This document shows, piece after piece, positions 19,835-31,521 of a DNA stretch of 64,000 bases (the first letter of the stretch is position 1; the number at the start of each line of letters is the position of its first letter). The position numbers and the translations under genes were made by a program. Source of the DNA: a virus; IMG/VR virus record IMGVR_UViG_3300045116_000451, positions 1 to 64,000 of that record, one strand, 5' to 3'. The notes under the pieces are model-generated. The model worked only from the letters and a program-made list of their open reading frames with translations, was not told the origin of the DNA and made no database searches.

Positions 19835-20255
19835 GCGCCAGAGCGTAATACACGACGGGAAACGTGCTTGAACGATCGCGCGGAAGATCGACGCGCGCGA
19901 AATCGACAAGCGTAGCTCGGCGAGACACGCGAGCGCAAGCGGAATGAAGGCGATCGTAACTGCGCGACAGTGCGCGGGATCCCGCTCGGGCGCGCACGGA
20001 TACCGCCACGTTGTAATCCGGGCACGTGCAGATAAGCACCCCTTATTGCCACGTTAGCCGTACGGCCCGCGGGGCCCGGGGTGGGGTGCGGCATCGGGAA
20101 AAATCGGCCCGCGCGCGTCAAAAACATATGGCGCGCGCGCGTACTACGTGGTATGGTCTGTCCTGGACCACGGAGGTCCAGCAACCCCCCCCCCGGCAGG
20201 GCCGGGCGACGACGGGCGCCGCGCCCCCCCCCATCGCGCGGCAGGAGCGGACGAT

Positions 20256-20486
20256 ATGGTGACCCTGTGCACGGCCCCTAGGCCCCCCGATGACGTGCTG
20301 GTAGACCTACTGGACCCCGCGTACCCCCCGGGGGTACAGTGTTACGGCTGGACGGCCGTAGATGACGCGGAGTTGGAGGTCGCGGACGCCGTGTCGATCG
20401 GCCCGCGGGCAACGGCGGCGGCACGGGCCGTGCTAGACGCAGCCCGCGCGCGTGTCGCGTGCGCGGTGCATCCGTGTAGCCCGTAG
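20256..20486 (+). CDS. Hypothetical protein (76 aa), first gene of the early-like block
   Basis: AGGAG RBS; ATG 20256. Confidence 0.5.
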   Translation: MVTLCTAPRPPDDVLVDLLDPAYPPGVQCYGWTAVDDAELEVADAVSIGPRATAAARAVLDAARARVACAVHPCSP

Positions 20487-20515
20487 CACACCCCTGGCGA
20501 CGCGCCGCAGGGGCC

Positions 20516-21079
20516 ATGCACCGCCTAGACCCCCTCCGCGAGCTACTCCGCGCCGCCGGCGCGGCGGTCGAGGTCCGCGCGGGCCTGGCCGGACTCGCGG
20601 CGGACGGCGCGGTGCTGGCGCCTGCCACGTGGACCGCGCGCGTAGCACGTCCTGGCCTAGCTGTCGTGGCTGGTCGGGTCACGCTGGACGCGCACGCGAT
20701 CCCGCGCGCCGAGCTGCGCTCGGGCGAGCGCGCCTACCGCGCGACCTGGATCGAGGTCGTGGGCGGGGCCGTCCGGGTCGTGCGCGGAGTGATCGCGTCG
20801 CGCCTCACGGACCGGTCGCGCGTGGACTGGTCGCACGCGTCCGGGCTGGCCGAGTGGCGACGCACGGCCGGGGCCCGCGCGAGGCGCCCTAGCTGCCCCG
20901 CTGTCGCGTCGAGCACCTCGGACGGGTCGGACCATGGGCGCCCCGCCGAGCGCGATAGCGCGTGCTATACACAGTTTGCGGTGGGGCCTCGCGGCGGATC
21001 CGATGCCGCGACGTTCCACCACGCATCGATTGCGACCCCGGGCACAGCGCCCGGGGATTCGGGTTGCGCGCGCTGGTAG
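20516..21079 (+). CDS. Hypothetical protein, paralogue of the C-terminus of 21552-22364
   Basis: VTLDA..YRATWI..VRVVRGVI..WSHAS matches VTLAA..YDASWI..VRVQHGVI..WIHAS. Confidence 0.55.
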   Translation: MHRLDPLRELLRAAGAAVEVRAGLAGLAADGAVLAPATWTARVARPGLAVVAGRVTLDAHAIPRAELRSGERAYRATWIEVVGGAVRVVRGVIASRLTDRSRVDWSHASGLAEWRRTAGARARRPSCPAVASSTSDGSDHGRPAERDSACYTQFAVGPRGGSDAATFHHASIATPGTAPGDSGCARW

Positions 21080-21158
21080 CACGTGCTATCATGCGTAGCG
21101 CGTGGCGCGCGGTGCGCCTACGCGCTACGGTCGCCCGGACCGGATACCGGGCAGGGAG
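21064..21158 (+). promoter_or_regulatory. Repeated promoter/operator/leader, copy A
   Basis: TTGCGC-17-TATCAT with palindrome TAGCACGTGCTA (21077-21088); leader near-identical to copy C. Confidence 0.75.
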
Positions 21159-21163
21159 AAAAA

Positions 21164-21406
21164 ATGACACGCGAACAGGCGATCGATCGACTCGTAAACC
21201 AGGTGGCCCGGTGGGGCGAGGGCGAGCGCGATACATCGCGCCCCGCTGACTGGGATTCCCGGCCGAATCGGCGCGCCGAGCTGTGCGCCTGCCCGGACTG
21301 CGGCGAGTCGCACGTGGACAACTGCGACGACTGCGGCTGTTGTGGTTTCTGCGGCGACTGCCACTGCGGCGGCACGACGCGCTGGGATGCCGTCGCCGTC
21401 GAGTAG
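21164..21406 (+). CDS. Small Cys-rich metal-binding protein
   Basis: CACPDC..CDDCGCCGFCGDCHC; GGGAG RBS. Confidence 0.65.
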   Translation: MTREQAIDRLVNQVARWGEGERDTSRPADWDSRPNRRAELCACPDCGESHVDNCDDCGCCGFCGDCHCGGTTRWDAVAVE

Positions 21407-21427
21407 TGCGCCTAGCGCCCCCGCCCG

Positions 21428-21517
21428 CCCCGGGGCGTCCTGCCCCCCCCCCTCCCAAAAACCGCTTGCGCGCGCTGGTAGCGCGTGCTATATGATGATA
21501 GCCCGCACGGAGCGGGC
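21428..21517 (+). promoter_or_regulatory. Repeated promoter/operator, copy B
   Basis: C-run/CAAAAA upstream, TTGCGC(21466)-17-TATATG, TAGCGCGTGCTA; hairpin GCCCGC-ACGGA-GCGGGC. Confidence 0.75.
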
Positions 21518-21551
21518 CAACGACCGGGCAGGGCCCGGGGAGGATAGAGCG

Positions 21552-22364
21552 ATGAGTCACCCACCTATCAGACTGAGCGTCACTGAACGAGGCCGACTGC
21601 ATCTGACCGGCCGCGCGGCGGGCTACCCCGCCGCGGACTACGCGTGCGTGTCGTCGCACGCGGATGATCTGGTCACGCGCTGGAGGCGCGCGTGTCAGGT
21701 CGCGGCGCGAGCATGCGACCTGCCGACGTCCGTGCGCGCGGCCGCGCTCGCCGCGCACGAGGTGCACGCGAGGCGCGAGATACAGCGGGCCACATCGATG
21801 GACCTGCTCGGCCGAAGATGCCCGGGACTCGCGGTCGCGCGCGCTACGCGCGTCCTCGCGCAGCGGTCGCGCGAGCACGAGGGACGCGTCGTGCACGCGG
21901 TGCGCGCAGCCTGGCACGTGTCCCCGTACCGTCGAGCGGCCGGGACCTGGGCAGGTGGCCATCACGGCCTGGAGGTCACCTGTTCCGAGTATGTTCAGGC
22001 TCGGACTGCAACCTGGAAAGTTTGGTCGAAAAACGGAAAATGGTCCGGGCTAGACGCTCGGACTGTCCTCGCGGTCGATCCGCGCAGGTACCCCCTCGAC
22101 CGCGCGGAGCTGCACGTGGTCGAGCGCCTGGTCACGCTCGCTGCGTCTCCGATCGCGTGCGCGACGGACGAGCAGGTCTACGACGCCTCGTGGATCAGGC
22201 AGGCGCGCGGGCTCGACGTGCGAGTGCAGCACGGTGTGATCTACCGTCGCCGATCCCGAGCGGGCGGCGCGTGGCTACCGTGGATCCACGCGTCCACGCT
22301 CGCCGCCGCTCGATCGGTCACGTCCCGTCTAGTGCGCGAGGCGCGCGCGCAGGTGTCGCCGTGA
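21552..22364 (+). CDS. Hypothetical protein (270 aa)
   Basis: GGAGG RBS, ATG 21552; GTGA coupling to next gene. Confidence 0.65.
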   Translation: MSHPPIRLSVTERGRLHLTGRAAGYPAADYACVSSHADDLVTRWRRACQVAARACDLPTSVRAAALAAHEVHARREIQRATSMDLLGRRCPGLAVARATRVLAQRSREHEGRVVHAVRAAWHVSPYRRAAGTWAGGHHGLEVTCSEYVQARTATWKVWSKNGKWSGLDARTVLAVDPRRYPLDRAELHVVERLVTLAASPIACATDEQVYDASWIRQARGLDVRVQHGVIYRRRSRAGGAWLPWIHASTLAAARSVTSRLVREARAQVSP

Positions 22365-23146
22365 GCTACCGCCGCGCCCCCCTCGCTGCGTGGCTGGCCC
22401 CGGAATACCCGCGCGCGTCGCTGGAGCAGGCGCGCCAGCTGCGATCGGGCCTCGCGCCGGCCGCCATCGCGCGCCGCGCCGACCCCGCCTCGACGCTCAC
22501 GGCCGCGGAGGCGCACGCGTGGCTGAGCGAGTCGCCCGACGTCGCGCCCCTCGCGTGGGCCACGCGTCACCTGCTCCGCGGCCAGCACGTCGTGCGGTCG
22601 TGGACCGTGCTCGGGTGGCTGCGCCGCGTGCTCGCCACGCCCGCGGAGCGCGCGGCGCTCCAGCGCGATCGGACCGTGCGCGGGCCCGGCGGGCAGACCG
22701 CGCGCGTGCGGCTCGTCGACCGCATCGACGAGATCCAGGACTGCGACCTAGCGCGCGGCGCCCGCACGGGCGTCGTGGCCGCCTTCGAGGCCGCCGCGGA
22801 GCGGTGGGGGTCGGCGTACCTCGCGCGCCTCGCGACCGACCATCGCGTGCTCCGCGACCCGCCCCCGTGGCGCCTCGGAGCACGCGTGCGCGTGCTCATC
22901 ACCGCCGCGGACCTAGTCCGTGAGGGGGCGGATATGCACCACTGCGTCGGCGGGTACGCTCACGCCGTCTCGACCGGGCAGAGCGTGATCCTCTCGATCC
23001 GGTGCCGCGCGCATCGGAGCACGGTTGAGGTGTCCCGAGACGGGTGTATCCGACAGCACAAGGGGGCAGGGAATGTTCCCCCGGACTCGGTGTGTGTGGC
23101 TATTCTGGAGAGTCTGAAACGAAGGAATGGGTGGCAACATGGGTAA
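22361..23146 (+). CDS. PcfJ-domain protein
   Basis: DLVREGADMHHCVGGY..ILSIR..TVEV..IRQHKG.GN. Confidence 0.8.
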   Translation: MSYRRAPLAAWLAPEYPRASLEQARQLRSGLAPAAIARRADPASTLTAAEAHAWLSESPDVAPLAWATRHLLRGQHVVRSWTVLGWLRRVLATPAERAALQRDRTVRGPGGQTARVRLVDRIDEIQDCDLARGARTGVVAAFEAAAERWGSAYLARLATDHRVLRDPPPWRLGARVRVLITAADLVREGADMHHCVGGYAHAVSTGQSVILSIRCRAHRSTVEVSRDGCIRQHKGAGNVPPDSVCVAILESLKRRNGWQHG

Positions 23147-23369
23147 CGCACGAAAAGTGAAGCTCGGCCGCGCCAGGCTCATCCTGCGCGACCATGCCGC
23201 GTGGGCCGGCGTCTCGGTTCCGCGCTCGGTGATGCGCCGCGAGACGGCGGCGCTCCTGCCGCTCGCCCGGCCGCGCGGGCTCGTGGCCGTGCTCCGCCTC
23301 GCCTGGCGGTGCGCCGTCGCCGCGTGGCGATGCTCGCGCGCCGCTGCCCGCCGTCTCCCCGTCTCCTAG
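23139..23369 (+). CDS. Hypothetical basic protein
   Basis: Overlaps the PcfJ stop; ends before the next promoter. Confidence 0.45.
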   Translation: MGNARKVKLGRARLILRDHAAWAGVSVPRSVMRRETAALLPLARPRGLVAVLRLAWRCAVAAWRCSRAAARRLPVS

Positions 23370-23379
23370 CCTCCCCCGT

Positions 23380-23510
23380 CCCCGGGGCGGCCTGTCCCCC
23401 CCCTCCCAAAAACCGCTTGCGCGCGCTGGTAGCACGTGCTATATGCACAGTGCGTGGCGCGCGGTGCGCCTACGCGCTACGGTCGCCCGGACCGGATACC
23501 GGGCAGGAGA
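23380..23510 (+). promoter_or_regulatory. Repeated promoter/operator/leader, copy C
   Basis: TTGCGC(23417)-17-TATATG, TAGCACGTGCTA (23430-23441); upstream part matches B, downstream part matches A. Confidence 0.75.
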
Positions 23511-23517
23511 CACCATC

Positions 23518-23949
23518 ATGGCTACTATCCTCACCCATCTGGCGGACCCCCGGAGCGCGACACCGGGTCCGTGCGCTATTTGCGGTTCCGACGCGACGTC
23601 CTGGCGCCGCACCGGCCTGGCCGCGGGCGGGCTCGTGCGCGCGGCGCGCGCTTGCGAGGCGCACGAGCACGACGTGGTCAGCGCGTTGGCCGCGCTCACC
23701 ATGGACGATTGCGTCTCGTTCGTGCCGCGCGCGAGGCGGCTCGCGCGCGCCGATGCCGCCGAGCGTCGCGCGGAGAGGCTGTGCGCGCGAGCTGGCGGGT
23801 GGCGGCGGATGTCCGCGTCGCTCCGTGGCGCATCGTCGCACACGCACACGTGTGCGCTCGTCGGGGGCGCATGCGCGCGCGAGGCCGCCGCGCTCGATGC
23901 CTATGCCGCCGCGCTCCGGGCGTCGATCGGGACGGGGGGTGAGTCATGA
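23518..23949 (+). CDS. Hypothetical protein, possible Zn finger
   Basis: CAIC..CEAH; AGGAG RBS. Confidence 0.55.
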   Translation: MATILTHLADPRSATPGPCAICGSDATSWRRTGLAAGGLVRAARACEAHEHDVVSALAALTMDDCVSFVPRARRLARADAAERRAERLCARAGGWRRMSASLRGASSHTHTCALVGGACAREAAALDAYAAALRASIGTGGES

Positions 23950-25433
23950 CCAGCACCTACACGCTCGCGGGCATCCGCGCTGTGCCGGTGACGATTGGCG
24001 TTACCATGACCGAGCGATCCGGGGTCTCGATCATGGGCATGACCGACGTCGACGCGCGCGAGACGCGCGTGCGCGTGCGCGCTTCCCTGGCGCGCCTCGG
24101 TGTGGACGTGGCCAGCCTCTCGGTCACAGTCATCGCCGATCCGCCCGTCACGTCGGACGCGGCGGCGCTCGATCTGCCGATCGCGTGCGCCGTGCTGGAG
24201 GCGCTCGGCGCCGTGCCGCCCGAGGCGCTGCGCGGCACCGTCATGCTCGGCGGGCTGTCGCTCACCGGCGCGGTGCGACCGATCCGGGGGCTCCTGCCTC
24301 GGCTCATCGGGGCGCGCGAGGCCGGGATGCGGCGGGCCATCGTGCCGGCGGGCAACGCGCGCGAGGCGGGCGCGGTCTCGGGGATCGAAGTGTTCGTCGC
24401 CGAGCACCTGGAGCAGGTGCGCGATCACGTGCGCGGCAAGGCTCTGCTTTCGACCGCGGCGGCGCGGGCCTACGAGGCGAGCGACGAGGCGGCGTTCGAC
24501 CTGGGCGACGTCAAGGGCCAGCACGCCGCGCGGCGAGCGCTCGAAATCGCCGCCGCGGGCGGCCATCACCTTCTCATGCTCGGCCCGCCGGGCGGCAAGA
24601 CGATGCTCGCCCGGCGAATGCCGTCCATTCTGCCGCCCCTCACCTTCGACGAGGCGATCGAGGCGAGCGTGGTTCACTCGGTCGATGGCATCTTGCCTGC
24701 CGACTCGGGCATCGTGCGGTCGCGTCCCTTCCGCGCCCCCCACTACACCGTGAGCGAAGCCGGGCTCGTGGGCGGCGGCGATCCGCCCCGGGCCGGCGAG
24801 GTCTCGCTCGCGCACCACGGCGTGCTGTTCCTCGACGATCTGGCGGAGTTCCGTCGGAGCACGCTCGAACAGTTGCGCGCTCCGCTCCACGACGGGTCCG
24901 TGACCGTCGGCCCGAACCGCGCCCGTGCGACGTTCCCGGCCCGCCCGATGCTCGTGGCGGCCATGAACCCCTGCCCGTGCGGCTACGCGGGAGAGGGGAG
25001 CGGGCGGTGCCGGTGTACCGTCGACGCGGTCACCCGATACCGCGACCGCGCGCTCGGTGCGCTCGGCGATCTGATCGACGCCCGAGTGCGGATCGAGCCG
25101 ACGAGCCCGAGCGCTCTAGCGGCCGCACCCCCGGGCGAGCCGTCGAGCGCTGTGCGAGAGCGCGTGGTGGCCGCGCGCGCGCGGCAGGCAGCCCGGCAGG
25201 ACGGGCAGCTCAACGGGCGCCTCGACCAGGCCGATTTCGAGCGCGTTGCGCCGCTCGACGAGCCCTCGACGCGCATGCTCGCTATCGCGGCGGAGGCCCG
25301 CGCGCTCGACGCCAGCGCCATTGTGCGCGTCCGTCGTGTCGCGCGCACGATCGCGGACCTAGACGGTGTCGAGCACGTGCGCGCCGAGCACGTGGCCGAG
25401 TCGCTCGCCCTCGCGGCCCCGGTTCTCCTGTAG
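23946..25433 (+). CDS. comM: ComM/YifB-family AAA+ protein with degenerate catalytic motifs
   Basis: DVKGQ..RRALEIAAAGGH, RPFRAPH, GEVSLAHHGVLFLD, AAMNPCPCG, RVARTIADL. Confidence 0.9.
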   Translation: MTSTYTLAGIRAVPVTIGVTMTERSGVSIMGMTDVDARETRVRVRASLARLGVDVASLSVTVIADPPVTSDAAALDLPIACAVLEALGAVPPEALRGTVMLGGLSLTGAVRPIRGLLPRLIGAREAGMRRAIVPAGNAREAGAVSGIEVFVAEHLEQVRDHVRGKALLSTAAARAYEASDEAAFDLGDVKGQHAARRALEIAAAGGHHLLMLGPPGGKTMLARRMPSILPPLTFDEAIEASVVHSVDGILPADSGIVRSRPFRAPHYTVSEAGLVGGGDPPRAGEVSLAHHGVLFLDDLAEFRRSTLEQLRAPLHDGSVTVGPNRARATFPARPMLVAAMNPCPCGYAGEGSGRCRCTVDAVTRYRDRALGALGDLIDARVRIEPTSPSALAAAPPGEPSSAVRERVVAARARQAARQDGQLNGRLDQADFERVAPLDEPSTRMLAIAAEARALDASAIVRVRRVARTIADLDGVEHVRAEHVAESLALAAPVLL

Positions 25434-25450
25434 CCCCCCCCAAAATTCGC

Positions 25451-25480
25451 TTGCGTTGTGTGCTAGCACGTGCTAGCACA
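25451..25480 (+). promoter_or_regulatory. Promoter/operator copy D with 22-bp perfect palindrome
   Basis: C-run CAAAATTCGC, TTGCGT; TGTGCTAGCACGTGCTAGCACA (25459-25480). Confidence 0.7.
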
Positions 25481-27096
25481 TGTCAGACGCGCACCCGCTC
25501 GCGCGTTTTCGATCGCGCATGCGTAGCTCCTGCCCCCGTCCTAGGTCCGACCGCGCCACGTGGCAACACGTGCTGGCGGTCGAATACGACCTGCCGGCCC
25601 ACGCGGGCGCGGCGAGAATCTGGGCGCGCGTGACGCGGCCGCCGCGCCCGATTCTCACGCCGGGCGCGTACGTCGCCGCCTGCCGGCGCCTTGCGGGCGA
25701 CCGCGTCTACACAGACGTTGTCCTCGACGGCGATCCGCCGTGGCGCCCGCTCGTCGGCTACTCACGCGTTGACGGGCGCCTCGTCGCGGCCGGGTTCGGG
25801 CTCTGCCCGCCACGCCGGTGGGTCGAGTCCGAGCTGGACCGGTTCCTGCGGTTCTGGCGCCGCACGGCGGGCCGGCCCGGGCTGGTTGGTTCCTCGTACA
25901 ATCCGCATTCGCCCGAGGTCACCTACCAGGCGTTGCGCGCCGGCGTGCCCGCGTGGATCGTGGCCTCAGGCGTCCGGCTCACAGGCCGTGACGGGCGCGT
26001 GCACCGAGTGACGCGCTCTAGGCGCCGGCGCCTGCAGGCCATGGCGAGGGCCATGCGCCGCCGCAGTTTCCACCGCTACGGCGTGACGTGGGGCCACGAC
26101 GCGCTACGGGCGATCGGGCGTCTGTCGCCCGAACTACAGGCCGTGGCGGTTTTGTCGGTGCGTCGCGAGCAGGCCGCCCGCAAATTCGCCGCGTGGACCG
26201 TCCGCGCGCGGGACCTGGACTGGCCACGGATAGCCGCGGTCCAGGCCGAGATCCTGGCGAACCCCACTGGCCCCCTCCGGGCCGCGTGGTCTGCCGTCGC
26301 CGACGCAAAAACGCCGCTGGGCGTCCGCGCAACGGCGATGCTCCCCGCGTGGTGCCGGGCCGAGGACGGGACCGTTAAGACGCGCCAGGCGATCGAATGG
26401 TTTGCGCCGGGCTCGCGCTGCGTCTCGCTCGCGCGCGCGGTGCGTCTCGCGCGCGGCGAAACGCCCGCCGAGATCGCAGGCGGGCTGCTCAGCGAGGCGG
26501 ACGCCGCGCGCTGGATCGCCTCGGAGCTGGATCCGGCGGAATGGCTCGCGGCCGAGATCGCGTCGGGCCTGCCGTCGGTCCGGGATCGCGAGCGAGTTCT
26601 GGACGAGCGTGGCCCGCGGCTCCTAGCGTGGCTGCGGGCAGTCGACCTGGCCGGCGGGTTGCCGGCGCTGTCGGCCGAACGCGTCCTGTCGAACCCGCAG
26701 GGCGAGCGGTTCCGGGTGCGGTACCTGGAGCAGCTCAGCACGTTCGAGCAGGCGCTGTACGTAGATTCGACGGAGCGCAACCCGGACGTGCTATTTGCCC
26801 GCGCGTTTGACTGGGGTTCGTGGCAGGCGCGCAACCTGCGTCCAGTCGAATCGCCCGCGCAGGAGGTGATGGAGCTGCGGGCGCGCGTGCAAATAGCGCG
26901 CGAGGCAGTAGCACAGCTGCTCGACGATTTGCGCGCCGGTCGCGCGCGCAGTCGAGACCTCGACGCCGCGCGCAGGGCGCTCGACGCGCTCGACAATGCC
27001 GCGCCGGGTGACGTGGTGCTCGTGCGCGTCACGCCCCCGGCTCGCCCCGGCTCCGAACCCCCCCGCAGAAAAATCGTCCTGCGGGAGACAGATTGA
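25480..27096 (+). CDS. Hypothetical protein sharing a domain with the PcfJ protein N-terminus (start uncertain)
   Basis: WFAPGSRCVSLARAVRLARGETPAEIA matches WLAPEYPRASLEQARQLRSGLAPAAIA. Confidence 0.6.
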   Translation: MSDAHPLARFRSRMRSSCPRPRSDRATWQHVLAVEYDLPAHAGAARIWARVTRPPRPILTPGAYVAACRRLAGDRVYTDVVLDGDPPWRPLVGYSRVDGRLVAAGFGLCPPRRWVESELDRFLRFWRRTAGRPGLVGSSYNPHSPEVTYQALRAGVPAWIVASGVRLTGRDGRVHRVTRSRRRRLQAMARAMRRRSFHRYGVTWGHDALRAIGRLSPELQAVAVLSVRREQAARKFAAWTVRARDLDWPRIAAVQAEILANPTGPLRAAWSAVADAKTPLGVRATAMLPAWCRAEDGTVKTRQAIEWFAPGSRCVSLARAVRLARGETPAEIAGGLLSEADAARWIASELDPAEWLAAEIASGLPSVRDRERVLDERGPRLLAWLRAVDLAGGLPALSAERVLSNPQGERFRVRYLEQLSTFEQALYVDSTERNPDVLFARAFDWGSWQARNLRPVESPAQEVMELRARVQIAREAVAQLLDDLRAGRARSRDLDAARRALDALDNAAPGDVVLVRVTPPARPGSEPPRRKIVLRETD

Positions 27097-27098
27097 AC

Positions 27099-27150
27099 TT
27101 GCGCCGCGTATACGCGGTGCTATCGTAGGCCATGCCCGCACGGCGCGGGC
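27099..27150 (+). promoter_or_regulatory. Promoter with a different palindrome and the shared leader hairpin
   Basis: TTGCGC-16-TATCGT; CCGCGTATACGCGG (27104-27117); GCCCGC-ACGGC-GCGGGC. Confidence 0.6.
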
Positions 27151-27171
27151 GCTGAACACCAGGAGGTGACC

Positions 27172-28743
27172 ATGTCCGAGAAACAGACCACCCGCCCCGC
27201 CATGGCGTCGGCGCTCATCCGCGCGAGGATTCGCGCGGTGCCGCTCGTGGCCGTGCGCACGGCGGACCAACCCGCCGCTGTGCGGGTGCTCACGGCGGCG
27301 CTGCTCGAAAGCGCCGTCGAGCGCGACGAGCCCCCGCCCGGGATCGTCGTGCATGACCCGGTGCGAGGGTTCGCGCCGGGCACCACCGCCGGAGCGGCCG
27401 GCCAGGCCGCGCAGGAGGCGATTGCGGCCATGCTCGGGGACCTCGACCCGAGCATGAGCGCCGACCCCGTTACCGCGCTCACAATGGCGGCCGCCGCGCC
27501 GCCGGACACCGTCGTGATCATGATGGCCGGTGACCGCGCGCTCGGCGAGCCGCGCCCGGCGCTGGCGGCCCTCCTGCTCCGGGACCGCTACGCCGCCGGG
27601 CGGTCCACGCTCGTTGTGCTCGGCGCGTCCTGGAGCCCCGCGGCCGAGCTTGGCTCGGACGTGTACGTGCTGGACGACGAGCCGCCAGAGACGCCCGAGC
27701 GGCGCTCGACGGTCGAGCGCCTCGTGGCCGATGCGAAACTCAGAGCGGACACGGCAACGATCGAGTCCGCATGCGGGTTCACTCGGGGGCTGAGCCGGTT
27801 CGCGGTCGAGCAGACCGTGAGCCTCGCCCTCAACGGAAAGGGGCTGCGCTTGGACGTGCTCGCGCGCGTCTGGCGCGAGGCGATCGACCGCACGCCCGGG
27901 CTCCGAGTGGAGTCCACGGGCTCCGGGGACGCCGAGTCCGTCGCCGGGCTCGCCGCGCTCCAGGCGCACGCCGCCCGCGTCACGAGCGGCCGCGCCCGCC
28001 CCGATGTTGTCGTGTGGATCGATGAGATCGAGAAGGCGCTGGCCGGCTCGTCCGGCGCCGTCGCCGACAGTTCCGGCGCCTCGCAAGCCGTGCTCGGATC
28101 CATCCTGACTGCGATGGAGCAGTCCGGGGCCGAGGGCATGATCCTCGTCGGCCCGCCCGGGACCGGGAAAAGCCTGTCCGCGCGCGTGATGGGCGCGGCC
28201 GCGGGCGTGCCCGTGATCCAGCTCGACCCCGGGCGAATCAAAGGGTCGCTCGTCGGGCAGACCGAGGCGCAAGCGGCGGCCGCCATGGCCGCGCTACGGG
28301 CCATGGGCGGCCGCTGCTACTGGGTCGCAACGAGCAACGGCCTGGCGACCGTGCCGCCCGAGCTGCTCCGCCGGTTCACGGACGGCGTGTGGTTCGTGGA
28401 CCTGCCCGCGCCCGACGAACGCGCCGCGTTGTGGCGCTTGTACCTGGACCGGTGGGATCTCCAGGACGAGATGCCCGCGTCGAGCGCCGACGTCGGCTAC
28501 AGCGGCGCCGACGTGCGCAACGTGTGCCGCACGGCGTGGCGGGACGGCGTCTCCGTCGCCGCCGTGATGGCGAGTTACGTGCCCGCCTCGAACGCGGCGC
28601 GCGATCGGATCGAGGCCCTGCGGCGCGGTGCCGTGGGCGCCTATCGATCGGCGTCCTACACGGGCGCCTACAGGATGCCGGTGGCGGAGCCGGCGAGTCA
28701 GCCGGCGACGGGCCGGAAACTGCAGCTAGGACGGGAGGGCTGA
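27172..28743 (+). CDS. Ycf46-like AAA ATPase with Walker B placed before Walker A
   Basis: VVWIDEIEKAL precedes GPPGTGKS; VATSN, PPELLRRF and FVDLP follow. Confidence 0.85.
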   Translation: MSEKQTTRPAMASALIRARIRAVPLVAVRTADQPAAVRVLTAALLESAVERDEPPPGIVVHDPVRGFAPGTTAGAAGQAAQEAIAAMLGDLDPSMSADPVTALTMAAAAPPDTVVIMMAGDRALGEPRPALAALLLRDRYAAGRSTLVVLGASWSPAAELGSDVYVLDDEPPETPERRSTVERLVADAKLRADTATIESACGFTRGLSRFAVEQTVSLALNGKGLRLDVLARVWREAIDRTPGLRVESTGSGDAESVAGLAALQAHAARVTSGRARPDVVVWIDEIEKALAGSSGAVADSSGASQAVLGSILTAMEQSGAEGMILVGPPGTGKSLSARVMGAAAGVPVIQLDPGRIKGSLVGQTEAQAAAAMAALRAMGGRCYWVATSNGLATVPPELLRRFTDGVWFVDLPAPDERAALWRLYLDRWDLQDEMPASSADVGYSGADVRNVCRTAWRDGVSVAAVMASYVPASNAARDRIEALRRGAVGAYRSASYTGAYRMPVAEPASQPATGRKLQLGREG

Positions 28744-28746
28744 GAC

Positions 28747-29094
28747 ATGCCGTGCAGCACTCGCTACGAAACCACGTCCATGGACGTGGCGAACATGAAC
28801 AGAACGCGCCTCGCGTCCGCGCTCGCGGACGCGGGGTGGAGCGTGAGCCACGACACCCACGCGGGGACGCTCACCGCGTGGTCCAAGGGCGGCGCGCGCC
28901 TGATGATCGACTCGCAGGGGGCACGGGTCGAAACGTCGGCCTACACCGACACCCCCGCCGCCGTCCAGACCGCGATTGCGCGCGCGTACGCGCTGCGCAC
29001 CGTGGCCGAGGTGGCCAAGCGCTTCGGGTTGCGGCAGACCGCCGCGCCCCAGACAACGAACAACGGCGCGACCCGCGTGCGCCTCACGAGGTGA
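28747..29094 (+). CDS. DUF1257-like small protein
   Basis: Size and position after Ycf46-like AAA; LASALADAGW..RAYALRTV..AKRFG. Confidence 0.5.
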   Translation: MPCSTRYETTSMDVANMNRTRLASALADAGWSVSHDTHAGTLTAWSKGGARLMIDSQGARVETSAYTDTPAAVQTAIARAYALRTVAEVAKRFGLRQTAAPQTTNNGATRVRLTR

Positions 29095-29096
29095 CT

Positions 29097-29363
29097 ATGT
29101 GCCAGTCCGTGAAGGGGCCCCTGGCCCCGAATACCCTCGACGTCGTGATTCTGCCAGACGGCAGGATCCGAATCGAAACCGGCTCGTTCGCCGGTGCCTC
29201 GCACACCAGCGCAAACGCGTTTCTCGCCGCGCTGGTGAAAGAGCTGGGCGTGTCGATCGAGCGGCGCGAGCCGCTCGCGCACACCCACGCTCACGAGCAC
29301 GCTCACGAGCACGAGCACCAACACGCGGGCACGGGCTCGCACGGAGGGCACGACCATGGCTGA
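29097..29363 (+). CDS. DUF2997-like small protein with His-rich tail
   Basis: VVILPDGRIRIETGSFAG; HTHAHEHAHEHEHQH. Confidence 0.55.
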   Translation: MCQSVKGPLAPNTLDVVILPDGRIRIETGSFAGASHTSANAFLAALVKELGVSIERREPLAHTHAHEHAHEHEHQHAGTGSHGGHDHG

Positions 29364-30924
29364 CACCGGAACGCTCGGACTGCCCGTTTCGTCGCAGCCC
29401 CCGACCGAGCCCGAGGCGCGCGCCGCGGGAGCGCTCGCCGCGAACGGAGCCCGATTCGACTCGGCCGAACGCCTGGAAATCTCGCGCGTGGTCCTGGCCG
29501 CGTTCGACGCGCCCGCGGCAACGCGCGGGGCCATCGTGGGCGCGCTCGACGTCGCGGCCGACGCGGCCACCTCGATCCGAGTCGGCGGGGTCTACTCGTC
29601 GGCGGCCGCGTTCGTGCGTGACCTGCCGCGCACCACGCGCCCGGTCGCGCGGGCTCTGCTCGTCGCCTGGACCGAGGGGGCGACGGTGCAGGCGCCCGCG
29701 CCCGCGCCCGAGCCCGAGGACGACGGGTTCGAGCCGGAGCCGGCACCGGAGCCGGTGACCGACGCGCCGCCCTCGGTCGAGGCTCCTGCTCCCGCCGCTA
29801 CGGTGCCGGAGCCCGTCGCGGCTGCGCCCGCGCCCGAGCCCGTGGTTGCCCCGCCCCCTCCCCCGCCCCCGGCTCCCGAACCGGTGATGGAGGCCGCTCC
29901 GGCCCCCACGCCGGTGCCCCCGGAACCCGTTGTGGAGCCCGAGCCCGTTCCGCTCCCGGCTCCCGAGCCCGAGCCGGACCTGTCGGATCTGCCGGCCGAC
30001 GCTCTGCGGGCCGTCGAGCAGGTCGAGGATCCGCTGGCGAAATGCCGGTGGCTCGTGCTGTCGTTCGACCGGCTCGGCCGATCGCGACAGGTGCGCGGCT
30101 ACGACGTGGACGTCACGGCGAACGGCGAGGACGTGGACGCGAGGCAGCTCGCCATGTCCAAAAAAATCCTTGACGTTAAACAGTCTAGGGCAATCGGATC
30201 GGCGGACTGCGGCCTGCGCGCGCAGCTGCGCGACGAGTACGCGTTGACCGCGGTGGGGGGCATGTACGCGATTCCCGTGCGCCTCATGTCCGCCGTCCAC
30301 GATCGCCTGACCGAGCATCGCGAACGACGCGGGAGGCTAGTTGCCGCGTTCCGCGAGGCCTACGCGGCGTCCATAGAGGCCGACCGCACGCGGCTCGGCG
30401 CGCTGTTCCGCGAGGCGGACTACCCCGCCGTTGAGGACGCGTGCAATGCGTTCGCCATGGCGTGGACGTGGCGGAGGCTCGACGGCGCGAGCGATGAGGA
30501 CCTCACCGACGCCATGGCCGCCGAGCAGCGGGAGCAGCTCGCGGCCGACTACGCCCGCCAGCGAGCCGAGGTCGTGGCCGGGCTACGGGCCATGTTTGCG
30601 AAGCTCGCGGAGGAACTGCGCGAGCGGCTCACGGCCGAGCGCGAGGCAGGCAAGGGGGCCATTTTCCGCGACGAGCGGGTCGAGAAACTGCGGCGTTTCG
30701 TCGGGCTGTTCGCGGAGCGCGACGTGGGCGATCCAGCCCTCGCGGACGAGGTCGCGCGCGTTGGGCGAGCGCTCGACGGCGTGGACGCGGACGACCTGCG
30801 CCGGGACGACTCGCTCCGGCGGACCACGGCCGAGACGCTCGCGAGCGTGACGGCCGCGGTAGCCACGTTCGAGACGGGAGCGGCGCCCCGGCGCAGGATG
30901 CGCCTTCGCCCCGAGGACGAGTGA
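29356..30924 (+). CDS. Two-domain protein with P/E/A linker; C-terminus DUF3150-like
   Basis: Long PEP linker; SKKIL..GMYAIP..LFREADYP..IFRD helical domain. Confidence 0.6.
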   Translation: MADTGTLGLPVSSQPPTEPEARAAGALAANGARFDSAERLEISRVVLAAFDAPAATRGAIVGALDVAADAATSIRVGGVYSSAAAFVRDLPRTTRPVARALLVAWTEGATVQAPAPAPEPEDDGFEPEPAPEPVTDAPPSVEAPAPAATVPEPVAAAPAPEPVVAPPPPPPPAPEPVMEAAPAPTPVPPEPVVEPEPVPLPAPEPEPDLSDLPADALRAVEQVEDPLAKCRWLVLSFDRLGRSRQVRGYDVDVTANGEDVDARQLAMSKKILDVKQSRAIGSADCGLRAQLRDEYALTAVGGMYAIPVRLMSAVHDRLTEHRERRGRLVAAFREAYAASIEADRTRLGALFREADYPAVEDACNAFAMAWTWRRLDGASDEDLTDAMAAEQREQLAADYARQRAEVVAGLRAMFAKLAEELRERLTAEREAGKGAIFRDERVEKLRRFVGLFAERDVGDPALADEVARVGRALDGVDADDLRRDDSLRRTTAETLASVTAAVATFETGAAPRRRMRLRPEDE

Positions 30925-31009
30925 GGGGCTCTGCCCGGGTCGGTGTGACAGCCGGCCCGGGCGCTGGGGCGCATGGTGCGTCCTCGTTACGTACTGCGGA
31001 GGTAGGAGC

Positions 31010-31246
31010 ATGAATTTCGCGAATATTGAGCATTGGCTGGGGCACTTCTGTCCGCATCCGGGCGGCGAGTGCGATCTACTGGTCGAGCGCGACCACACGT
31101 CCGCCGCAGTTCCGTGGACGGTGAGCGTGCGATCGGACATGGGGCGCACGTTCGGAGTGGGGGCCTCGCTAGCCGAGGCGCTCGCGAACCTGGACGCGCA
31201 GCTCGGGACGAGGTTCCCGATCGGAAAGCGGGAGACCGAGCGATGA
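31010..31246 (+). CDS. Hypothetical protein (tandem paralogue 1)
   Basis: AGGAG RBS; GASLAEALANLDAQLG. Confidence 0.6.
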   Translation: MNFANIEHWLGHFCPHPGGECDLLVERDHTSAAVPWTVSVRSDMGRTFGVGASLAEALANLDAQLGTRFPIGKRETER

Positions 31247-31521
31247 GGTACACGTGGATTGACAAGTACCTGGCCACGTTCGGGTGCGAGGTGCGCGTCG
31301 AACGCACGTCCGTCCATCGCGCTGTGCGGTGGTGGTCGAGCGTGCCTGCCAACGGAGAGGCTACATTCGGAGCCGACGGATTCGAGGTTGAGGAAAAGTC
31401 CGTAGTCTGGAAGATAAGCGTGCCCAGCGGTCACGAGCGGGTGACATACTCGGGCGAAACGCTCGCCAATGCGCTCGCGGACCTGAACGCGTATCTGGGC
31501 TGCAAATTGGCTACGATTTAG
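31243..31521 (+). CDS. Hypothetical protein (tandem paralogue 2)
   Basis: ATGA coupling; GETLANALADLNAYLG. Confidence 0.6.
   Translation: MRYTWIDKYLATFGCEVRVERTSVHRAVRWWSSVPANGEATFGADGFEVEEKSVVWKISVPSGHERVTYSGETLANALADLNAYLGCKLATI

Follow-up and report, generated by a model that had tools for sequence, protein, structure and literature searches.

The stretch of viral DNA analysed here (the window: 64,000 nucleotides, the first 64 kb of the 95,653-bp IMG/VR virus record IMGVR_UViG_3300045116_000451, CheckV completeness 66%) carries at positions 23946-25433 a gene for a homologue of ComM/YifB, in the following termed viral ComM, in which a large number of residues near-invariant in this family have been replaced. 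In the natural transformation of Gram-negative bacteria ComM acts as the branch-migration motor, and comM is among the commonest targets of mobile elements; hence the idea that ComM helps cells to delete such elements. Judging from its sequence, viral ComM cannot be a normal ComM motor or branch-migration helicase, and the explanation that accounts best for our observations, although we consider it an even call, is that of a retained, motor-dead pseudo-ATPase with a binding role. According to this explanation, a host-derived comM/yifB gene was captured from the Polyangiales and has then evolved faster in the virus. The protein has lost the length of its P-loop, its catalytic glutamate and both of the arginines that reach the ATP site of the neighbouring subunit, together with the conserved Arg and Pro of two DNA-binding pore loops and the salt-bridge Glu of the Lon ring, and has kept its three-domain fold and its zinc finger. 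The role retained would most likely be binding only, without turnover: viral ComM would engage host ComM subunits, or the DNA and protein partners of ComM, and so block ComM-dependent recombination, or would alternatively serve as a non-ring scaffold. Both retention by selection and interaction with host ComM are presumed in this account.

The open reading frame (ORF) 23946-25433 is confirmed as a full-length three-domain ComM/YifB homologue, as a preliminary description made from the DNA letters had named it: the protein scores 414.4 bits against TIGR00368 ('YifB family', cut-off 362.4), it matches PF13541 (Lon-like ChlI N domain, 2.9e-19), PF01078 (Mg_chelatase AAA+, 1.4e-77) and PF13335 (C-terminal lid, 7.1e-21), its best solved match is the ComM of Legionella pneumophila (LpComM, 8rxd; E 6e-87, aligned over residues 2-488) and the record that carries it is classed as viral. 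Its domains comprise a Lon-like N-terminal domain (amino acids (aa) 1-170), an AAA+ domain with an embedded C4 zinc finger (aa 171-392) and a Mg_chelatase_C lid (aa 393-495), which is the same arrangement of three domains and embedded zinc finger as in LpComM (8rxd/8rxt, PMC11612176) and in the ComM of Vibrio cholerae (Nero et al. 2018). The AlphaFold2 model of viral ComM exhibits a mean predicted local distance difference test (pLDDT) score of 70.8, with low values at residues 240-332, and its best structural matches are 8rxd/8rxt (E 1.3e-31, template modelling (TM) score 0.65).

We compared viral ComM with 318 relatives: its 119 nearest relatives (50-56% identity; those named are metagenome-assembled genomes (MAGs) of Polyangiaceae or Myxococcales, and Polyangium), members from 80 diverse bacterial genomes and the 119 proteins closest to a second viral ComM (L004, record IMGVR_UViG_3300037504_000719). 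Residue roles and numbering follow the structure of LpComM (PMC11612176), and the columns with at least 97% conservation in the 80 diverse bacterial ComM/YifB proteins are referred to as near-invariant (n = 92). The gene and the motifs in question are:

23946-25433, + strand: viral ComM/YifB-derived gene, 495 aa (ORF list, Pfam/TIGRFAM profiles, 8rxd alignment)
23997-23999, + strand: Gly18, replacing the Lon-ring interface Glu (LpComM E22; 8rxd alignment)
24582-24602, + strand: Walker A GPPGGKT, shorter by one residue than GPPGxGKT, codons GGC CCG CCG GGC GGC AAG ACG (sequence reading, alignment of the relatives)
24834-24839, + strand: Asp297-Asp298, replacing Asp-Glu in Walker B, LFLDDL (24825-24842; alignment)
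24912-24914, + strand: Pro323, replacing the Arg of the Ps1-beta pore loop (LpComM R328; alignment)
24972-25016, + strand: zinc-finger motif CPCG...CRC, intact (C343, C345, C355, C357), located after sensor 1 (alignment)
25050-25079, + strand: ALGALGDLID, replacing SGPLLDRID, with S370L, P372A and R376L (LpComM R381; alignment)
25305-25316, + strand: LDAS in the lid, replacing LSAR, with S455D and R457S (LpComM R463; alignment)

The preliminary description had picked out three altered elements within an otherwise intact frame of 495 aa and beside an intact zinc-finger motif, and every part of this picture holds. Reading of the codons bears out that Walker A is one residue short: the extra residue (G, S, A or T) is present in 318/318 relatives and the short form in 0/318. 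The commonest state amongst the nearest relatives is GPPGGGKT, most often written with three Gly codons, and loss of one GGC from such a GGC run would thus be a simple slippage event. The catalytic Glu of Walker B (LpComM E302), for which viral ComM has Asp298, is likewise found in all 318 relatives, and the Arg of LLDRID (LpComM R381), replaced by Leu376, in 316 of them. Beyond these three motifs, the changes also affect two additional arginines and each of the pore loops. The Arg of the lid motif 'SAR', retained in 313/318 relatives, is Ser457 in viral ComM; its LpComM counterpart R463, which occupies the sensor-2 position, is an arginine finger that contacts the gamma-phosphate of the neighbouring subunit together with R316 (PMC11612176). 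In case of the pore loops, the Arg of the Ps1-beta loop (LpComM R328, for whose role see PMC11612176) has become Pro323 and the Pro of the H2i loop (PxPGE) has become Ala283, with both R323P and P283A falling in columns that are 100% conserved among the 80 diverse members. The Lon-like domain has Ser70 in place of a Lys (LpComM K76) and Gly18 in place of the ring Glu, which is present in 313 of the 318 relatives and whose LpComM equivalent E22 forms the inter-subunit salt bridge of the Lon ring with R117 (PMC11612176). Among the Lon-ring contacts of LpComM, E22-R117 is represented by Gly18 and R111, and S26-R50 by T22 and R45. As in active ComM, viral ComM keeps the Walker A Lys and Thr (K218/T219), the Walker B Asp (D297), the sensor-1 Asn (N341) and the sensor-3 Arg (R311, LpComM R316), in addition to the equivalents of R117, R50, K43 and K46.

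Altogether, 18/92 near-invariant columns are changed in viral ComM, where other members of the family have 0.62 on average and never more than 4, and these changes are distributed over the Lon-like domain (7/19), the AAA+ domain (8/60) and the lid (3/13). The predicted loss of motor activity, proposed initially in the form of an inactive subunit, is better supported than was supposed at the time, given the two additional arginines and the pore loops.

The sequence in the altered regions is reproducible. Contigs from the probable source run and from three other lake-water runs exhibit no difference and no indel in the Walker A, Walker B and LLDRID regions, and the recurrence of the same sequence in contigs of the three other lake runs rules out an assembly error; Walker A in particular reads the same in the contigs from runs X1, X3 and X5. 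A variant with the missing codon restored, to which the preliminary description had looked as counter-evidence, occurs in none of the contigs of these four runs, bearing in mind that contigs may mask rare variants. The same viral comM sequence is found in runs listed under 2018 and 2025, and the virus's own contigs show zero differences in comM: the 'other letters' at 24801-24821 and 24983 belong to comM genes of other organisms. The same ComM protein is also encoded on a second, 120-kb contig. The runs that hold the window sequence are lake-water metagenomes, with no RNA run among them. Runs X1 and X4 also contain contigs of low depth that depart from the window sequence at ~7% of positions in the gene following comM (window 25848-26113), and the lakes may thus harbour a sister strain of this virus.

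Maximum-likelihood trees place viral ComM nested inside a Polyangiales/Polyangiaceae clade, with a Shimodaira-Hasegawa-like approximate likelihood ratio test (SH-aLRT) value of 100. This nesting gives the direction of transfer as host lineage to virus, and the phylogeny thereby shows a capture of comM from a Polyangiales (Myxococcota) lineage. It shows equally that viral ComM has evolved faster than its cellular sisters, in that its terminal branch measures 0.74 substitutions/site and those of the sisters 0.31-0.43 from the same node. A search of 5.8 billion proteins gave 56% for the best relative, and a search of viral contigs 48%; phage records yielded no near-identical DNA, with all protein matches at <60% identity, and ORF538 had no close relative among viral contigs. 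Amongst viruses with the same neighbouring AAA module none carries ComM, and capture of comM as a block together with neighbouring host genes was not supported. Comparison with the nearest relatives, the YifB proteins of Polyangiaceae/Polyangiales MAGs (e.g. P0006, P0011, L023, L024; 50-56% identity, similarly high GC), reveals that these keep every catalytic motif whereas the viral copy does not, and that the viral copy exhibits fewer AA/TT dinucleotides (observed/expected 0.61 and 0.74, compared to ~1.0-1.4) and fewer Lys and Asn residues. We considered avoidance of AA/TT as the driver of the losses and rejected it: the depletion is only mild and leaves the E-to-D and R-to-L/S/P replacements unexplained. 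Some Polyangiaceae-like YifB proteins (P0054, P0077, P0088, P0101, P0113) have kept Walker A and B and lost the sensor-2 Arg, with P0077, P0101 and P0113 forming a clade; P0077 and P0101 are also without the LLDRID Arg, and P0088 and P0101 without the E22-equivalent Glu.

The second viral ComM, L004, is encoded by an uncultivated tailed phage as a full-length protein on a long branch (L004:9845-11431), its gene being flanked on one side by a recombination/replication module (Sak4-like protein, exonuclease, DnaC-like loader, Holliday junction resolvase) and on the other by baseplate genes. L004 ComM is a singleton for which no close relatives were found. Its nearest relative is the YifB of a Bradymonadales MAG (62% identity), which indicates a capture separate from that of viral ComM. 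Both proteins are thus full-length, virus-borne and long-branched, and they share a Walker B that reads DD as well as the loss of the LLDRID Arg (MLDQFD in L004) and of the E22-equivalent Glu (Lys in L004). Unlike viral ComM, L004 ComM has a Bradymonadales-like source, an adjoining phage recombination module and an intact Walker A, sensor-2 Arg and pore-loop Arg; its R117-, R50-, K46- and K64-equivalents are also changed. Relative to its own sisters, L004 has altered only 3/92 invariant positions (E18K, E298D and R376Q), and all three are also changed in viral ComM: the probability of this by chance is C(18,3)/C(92,3) = 816/125,580 = 0.0065. H267F in L004 was rejected as a convergent change, being inherited from the cellular sisters of L004. 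The three residues concerned (equivalents of LpComM E22, E302 and R381) all act in hydrolysis or inter-subunit contacts and, as far as the alignments suggest, tend to be lost together; only two cellular relatives lack the E22-equivalent Glu (P0088 and P0101) and both of these are also without trans-acting arginines. The overlap between the changes of L004 and those of viral ComM points to selection and not only to decay. Forcing both into one clade costs 40.9 log-likelihood units (approximately unbiased (AU) test, p = 0.057).

As for the remaining ComM matches on viral contigs, L002 and L003 look like ordinary genes. The phage L008, which has terminase and portal genes, encodes a very divergent ComM (L008:9421-11040; terminal branch ~1.7-1.9) with all catalytic motifs intact and the E22-equivalent Glu lost (Gln). 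L005 (L005:1905-4498) was discarded as a second example, since it represents a host comM that is cut right after the LLD of LLDRID by an abutting large serine integrase gene; such an arrangement is a classic mobile-element insertion into comM.

Viral comM is located in a 10-kb block (window 20000-30000) with a GC content of 73%, compared to ~65% in the whole genome. Copies of a promoter-like element are interspersed in this block; they bear the palindrome TAGCACGTGCTA, of which the window contains 5 occurrences where 0.02 would be expected. The block has a promoter-like repeat set of its own and is slightly poor in AA/TT, the observed/expected ratio being 0.3-0.7 in 20413-23020 and in the comM gene. 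The features surrounding comM are:

23396-23445, + strand: promoter-like element copy (TTGCGC, 17 nt, TATATG) with palindrome TAGCACGTGCTA at 23430-23441; repeat family D1, 98% identical to 21445-21494
23443-23507, + strand: 65-nt leader, 95% identical to 21091-21155, ending just before the strong Shine-Dalgarno sequence AGGAGA (23505-23510); repeat family D2
23518-23949, + strand: gene preceding comM in the operon, with a probable length of 143 aa from the ATG at 23518 (listed as 168 aa from 23443; ORF list, sequence reading)
25430-25479, + strand: next promoter-like element copy, palindrome at 25464-25475, right after the comM stop and starting the following gene (25480-27096)

The 65-nt stretch looks like a shared 5' leader, not like coding sequence, and on this reading the upstream ORF probably comprises 143 aa and not 168 aa; both 65-nt stretches (21091-21155 and 23443-23507) come after promoter-like copies. 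The 143-aa protein has no Pfam or PHROG match. Its TGA shares bases with the ATG of comM in an ATGA overlap, and the comM start is preceded by a Shine-Dalgarno-like stretch, GGGGGTGAG. Viral comM would thus come second in a unit headed by a repeated promoter/operator element and be coupled in translation to the gene before it, which is an expressed-looking position, and we infer that the gene is expressed. Co-transcription from a copy of this promoter, as initially described, is borne out in part: comM does sit behind a copy of the repeated element, but a sigma-70 consensus scan of 20000-31500 called no promoter, the sites of the repeat element included, and the element is a putative promoter. 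Neighbouring genes of comM encode a PcfJ-like protein and an AAA ATPase (phrog_8638), alongside unknown genes. The C-terminal part of ORF 21692-23146, which overlaps another long ORF (21342-22364), matches PcfJ-like (PF14284, 1.6e-11), a family known from conjugative elements. The record also encodes a tyrosine recombinase domain, and an integrated phase is hence possible. The stretch that holds comM is open over 810 aa in another frame.

Simple decay had been allowed for from the beginning and still deserves to be weighed: we see it as a substantial minority possibility that a host comM captured by chance has lost its function, perhaps through GGC slippage in Walker A, and is now a drifting relic, which remains open because stops are rare at 74% GC and because the useful gene of the operon is the upstream one. 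A relic of this kind should carry other scars, however. In order to change 20% of the invariant residues, ~150 neutral substitutions are needed, and in a bacterial pseudogene that has accumulated so many several frameshifting indels are expected; viral comM shows no frameshift, and its at least five lineage-specific indels are all in frame. Viral ComM furthermore has the consensus residue in 81% of those columns that are most conserved, compared to 22-35% of the variable columns: the gradient remains strong and the site-by-site constraint of the family is still visible. The intact translational coupling and Shine-Dalgarno-like stretch also speak against decay, as do the copies of the operator-bearing element on either side of the gene, the unchanged sequence in runs listed under 2018 and 2025 and the change of the same three positions in the independently captured ComM of L004, a protein that otherwise looks fully constrained. 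A number of observations weigh on the other side, against a retained binding role. The 18 losses are spread over all three domains, with the Lon-like domain being the most eroded, and are not significantly enriched in catalytic residues (3/7 key residues, P = 0.13). Replacements at conserved columns have a mean BLOSUM62 score of -0.08, which is intermediate between the +0.67 of other members and the neutral expectation of -0.6. An open frame in this 74% GC gene survives 20% neutral amino-acid change with P ~0.22, and the integrity of the frame is consequently weak evidence for selection; the 810-aa ORF in another frame of the same stretch is in line with decay, as are the status of viral ComM as a singleton without close relatives and the existence of other viruses that have the neighbouring AAA module without ComM. 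The relatives are too distant for the ratio of nonsynonymous to synonymous substitution rates (dN/dS), and retention by selection is presumed from the pattern of changes. The damaged P-loop and the lost Lon-ring Glu may prevent co-assembly with host ComM, which is uncertain because the P-loop is shortened and the Lon-like domain eroded. Lastly, a single origin of viral ComM and L004 narrowly escapes rejection in the AU test, and so shared ancestry is possible instead of convergence. Even then, a long period of retention would be indicated, and whether convergent or ancestral, the overlap argues that hydrolysis-dead ComM copies with altered ring contacts may be kept by viruses.

Within the retained binding role, the specific form already suggested in the preliminary description is that of a dominant-negative poison or cap, a form we find unlikely when taken by itself: the viral subunit would dock on host ComM and either fail to fire the ATP site of its neighbour or fail to pass on the ring contacts, such that hexamers would stall or never close and the virus, or its integrated form, would be shielded from recombination. 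This fits the loss of both trans-acting arginines and of the Lon-ring Glu alongside the retention of the partner Arg (R111, equivalent to R117) and of the basic pore residues R38 and R41, and it fits L004, in which Walker A is intact and the changes are confined to the Glu of the interface, the catalytic Glu and the Arg of LLDRID. The tyrosine recombinase domain, with its possible integrated phase, is in line with this form as well. Precedent is provided by RadA, an analogous hexameric branch-migration motor, whose ATPase-dead alleles K108R and K258A of Escherichia coli are dominant-negative (PMC4786428), and by the common inactivation of comM by mobile elements (PMC12378983). The interaction with host ComM is putative, however, and ComM requires nucleotide for both hexamerisation and DNA binding (Nero 2018, bioRxiv 10.1101/147660), whereas the P-loop of viral ComM is itself shortened; the most eroded part of the protein is, moreover, the Lon-like domain that forms the constant ring, and L004 is also without the R117-equivalent and is hence not a one-faced cap. 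It is very improbable that viral ComM is a still active, unusual ATPase or helicase, in which the P-loop would have shifted register (LGPPGGKT as x-xxxx-GKT), Asp would take over from the catalytic Glu and the lost arginines would be made good by basic residues elsewhere. Arginines do lie close by (R325 and R327 by P323; R461, R463 and R464 after S457), and K218, T219, D297, N341 and R311 are retained; yet four independent catalytic elements are altered, with none of these states present in the 318 relatives, both pore loops are changed, and in ComM the K224A replacement alone abolishes function and DNA binding (10.1101/147660).

The retained, motor-dead protein that we favour has counterparts amongst known systems, although none that matches it fully. 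It departs from LpComM in the short P-loop and in the replacement of E302 by Asp, R381 by Leu, R463 by Ser, R328 by Pro, the H2i Pro by Ala, E22 by Gly and K76 by Ser, besides being virus-encoded and on a longer branch. The dominant-negative RadA alleles resemble it in that Walker A or arginine/'piston' function is lost in a ring motor with a Lon-like domain, but these are point mutants made in the laboratory from the gene of the cell itself, whereas viral ComM is natural, virus-encoded and far more diverged, and interference has been demonstrated for the RadA alleles only. Mobile elements silence comM either by insertion or by means of a small RNA (sRNA), such as the plasmid sRNA RocRp (PMC12378983), and the presumed target and rationale, namely to block recombination or 'chromosomal curing', would be the same for viral ComM; all interference routes covered by this review act on the comM gene or its mRNA, with no protein-level decoy among them, which is how viral ComM would act. 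We found no earlier description of a virus-encoded, naturally motor-dead ComM, whilst the family itself and dominant-negative ring ATPases are already known. A broader proposal, which we regard as rather doubtful, is that viruses repeatedly convert a captured host comM into a hydrolysis-dead, ring-incompetent or ring-capping subunit via the same inter-subunit residues (Lon-ring Glu, catalytic Glu and LLDRID Arg), the product being a protein-level inhibitor of ComM-dependent recombination and hence a new anti-transformation or anti-'chromosomal curing' class, of which the gene in this window would be an advanced member.

Should viral ComM prove inert, it would clearly exemplify how a gene taken from a host comes to be lost again from the genome of a virus. 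If, on the other hand, the binding role holds true, a virus-encoded, motor-dead ComM would represent a new route of interference with ComM, one that operates at the level of the protein. Viral ComM would at the same time be a natural 'mutant' that marks the residues for inter-subunit communication in ComM, with the changes common to the two viral copies providing a short list of these: E22, E302 and R381 in the numbering of LpComM.

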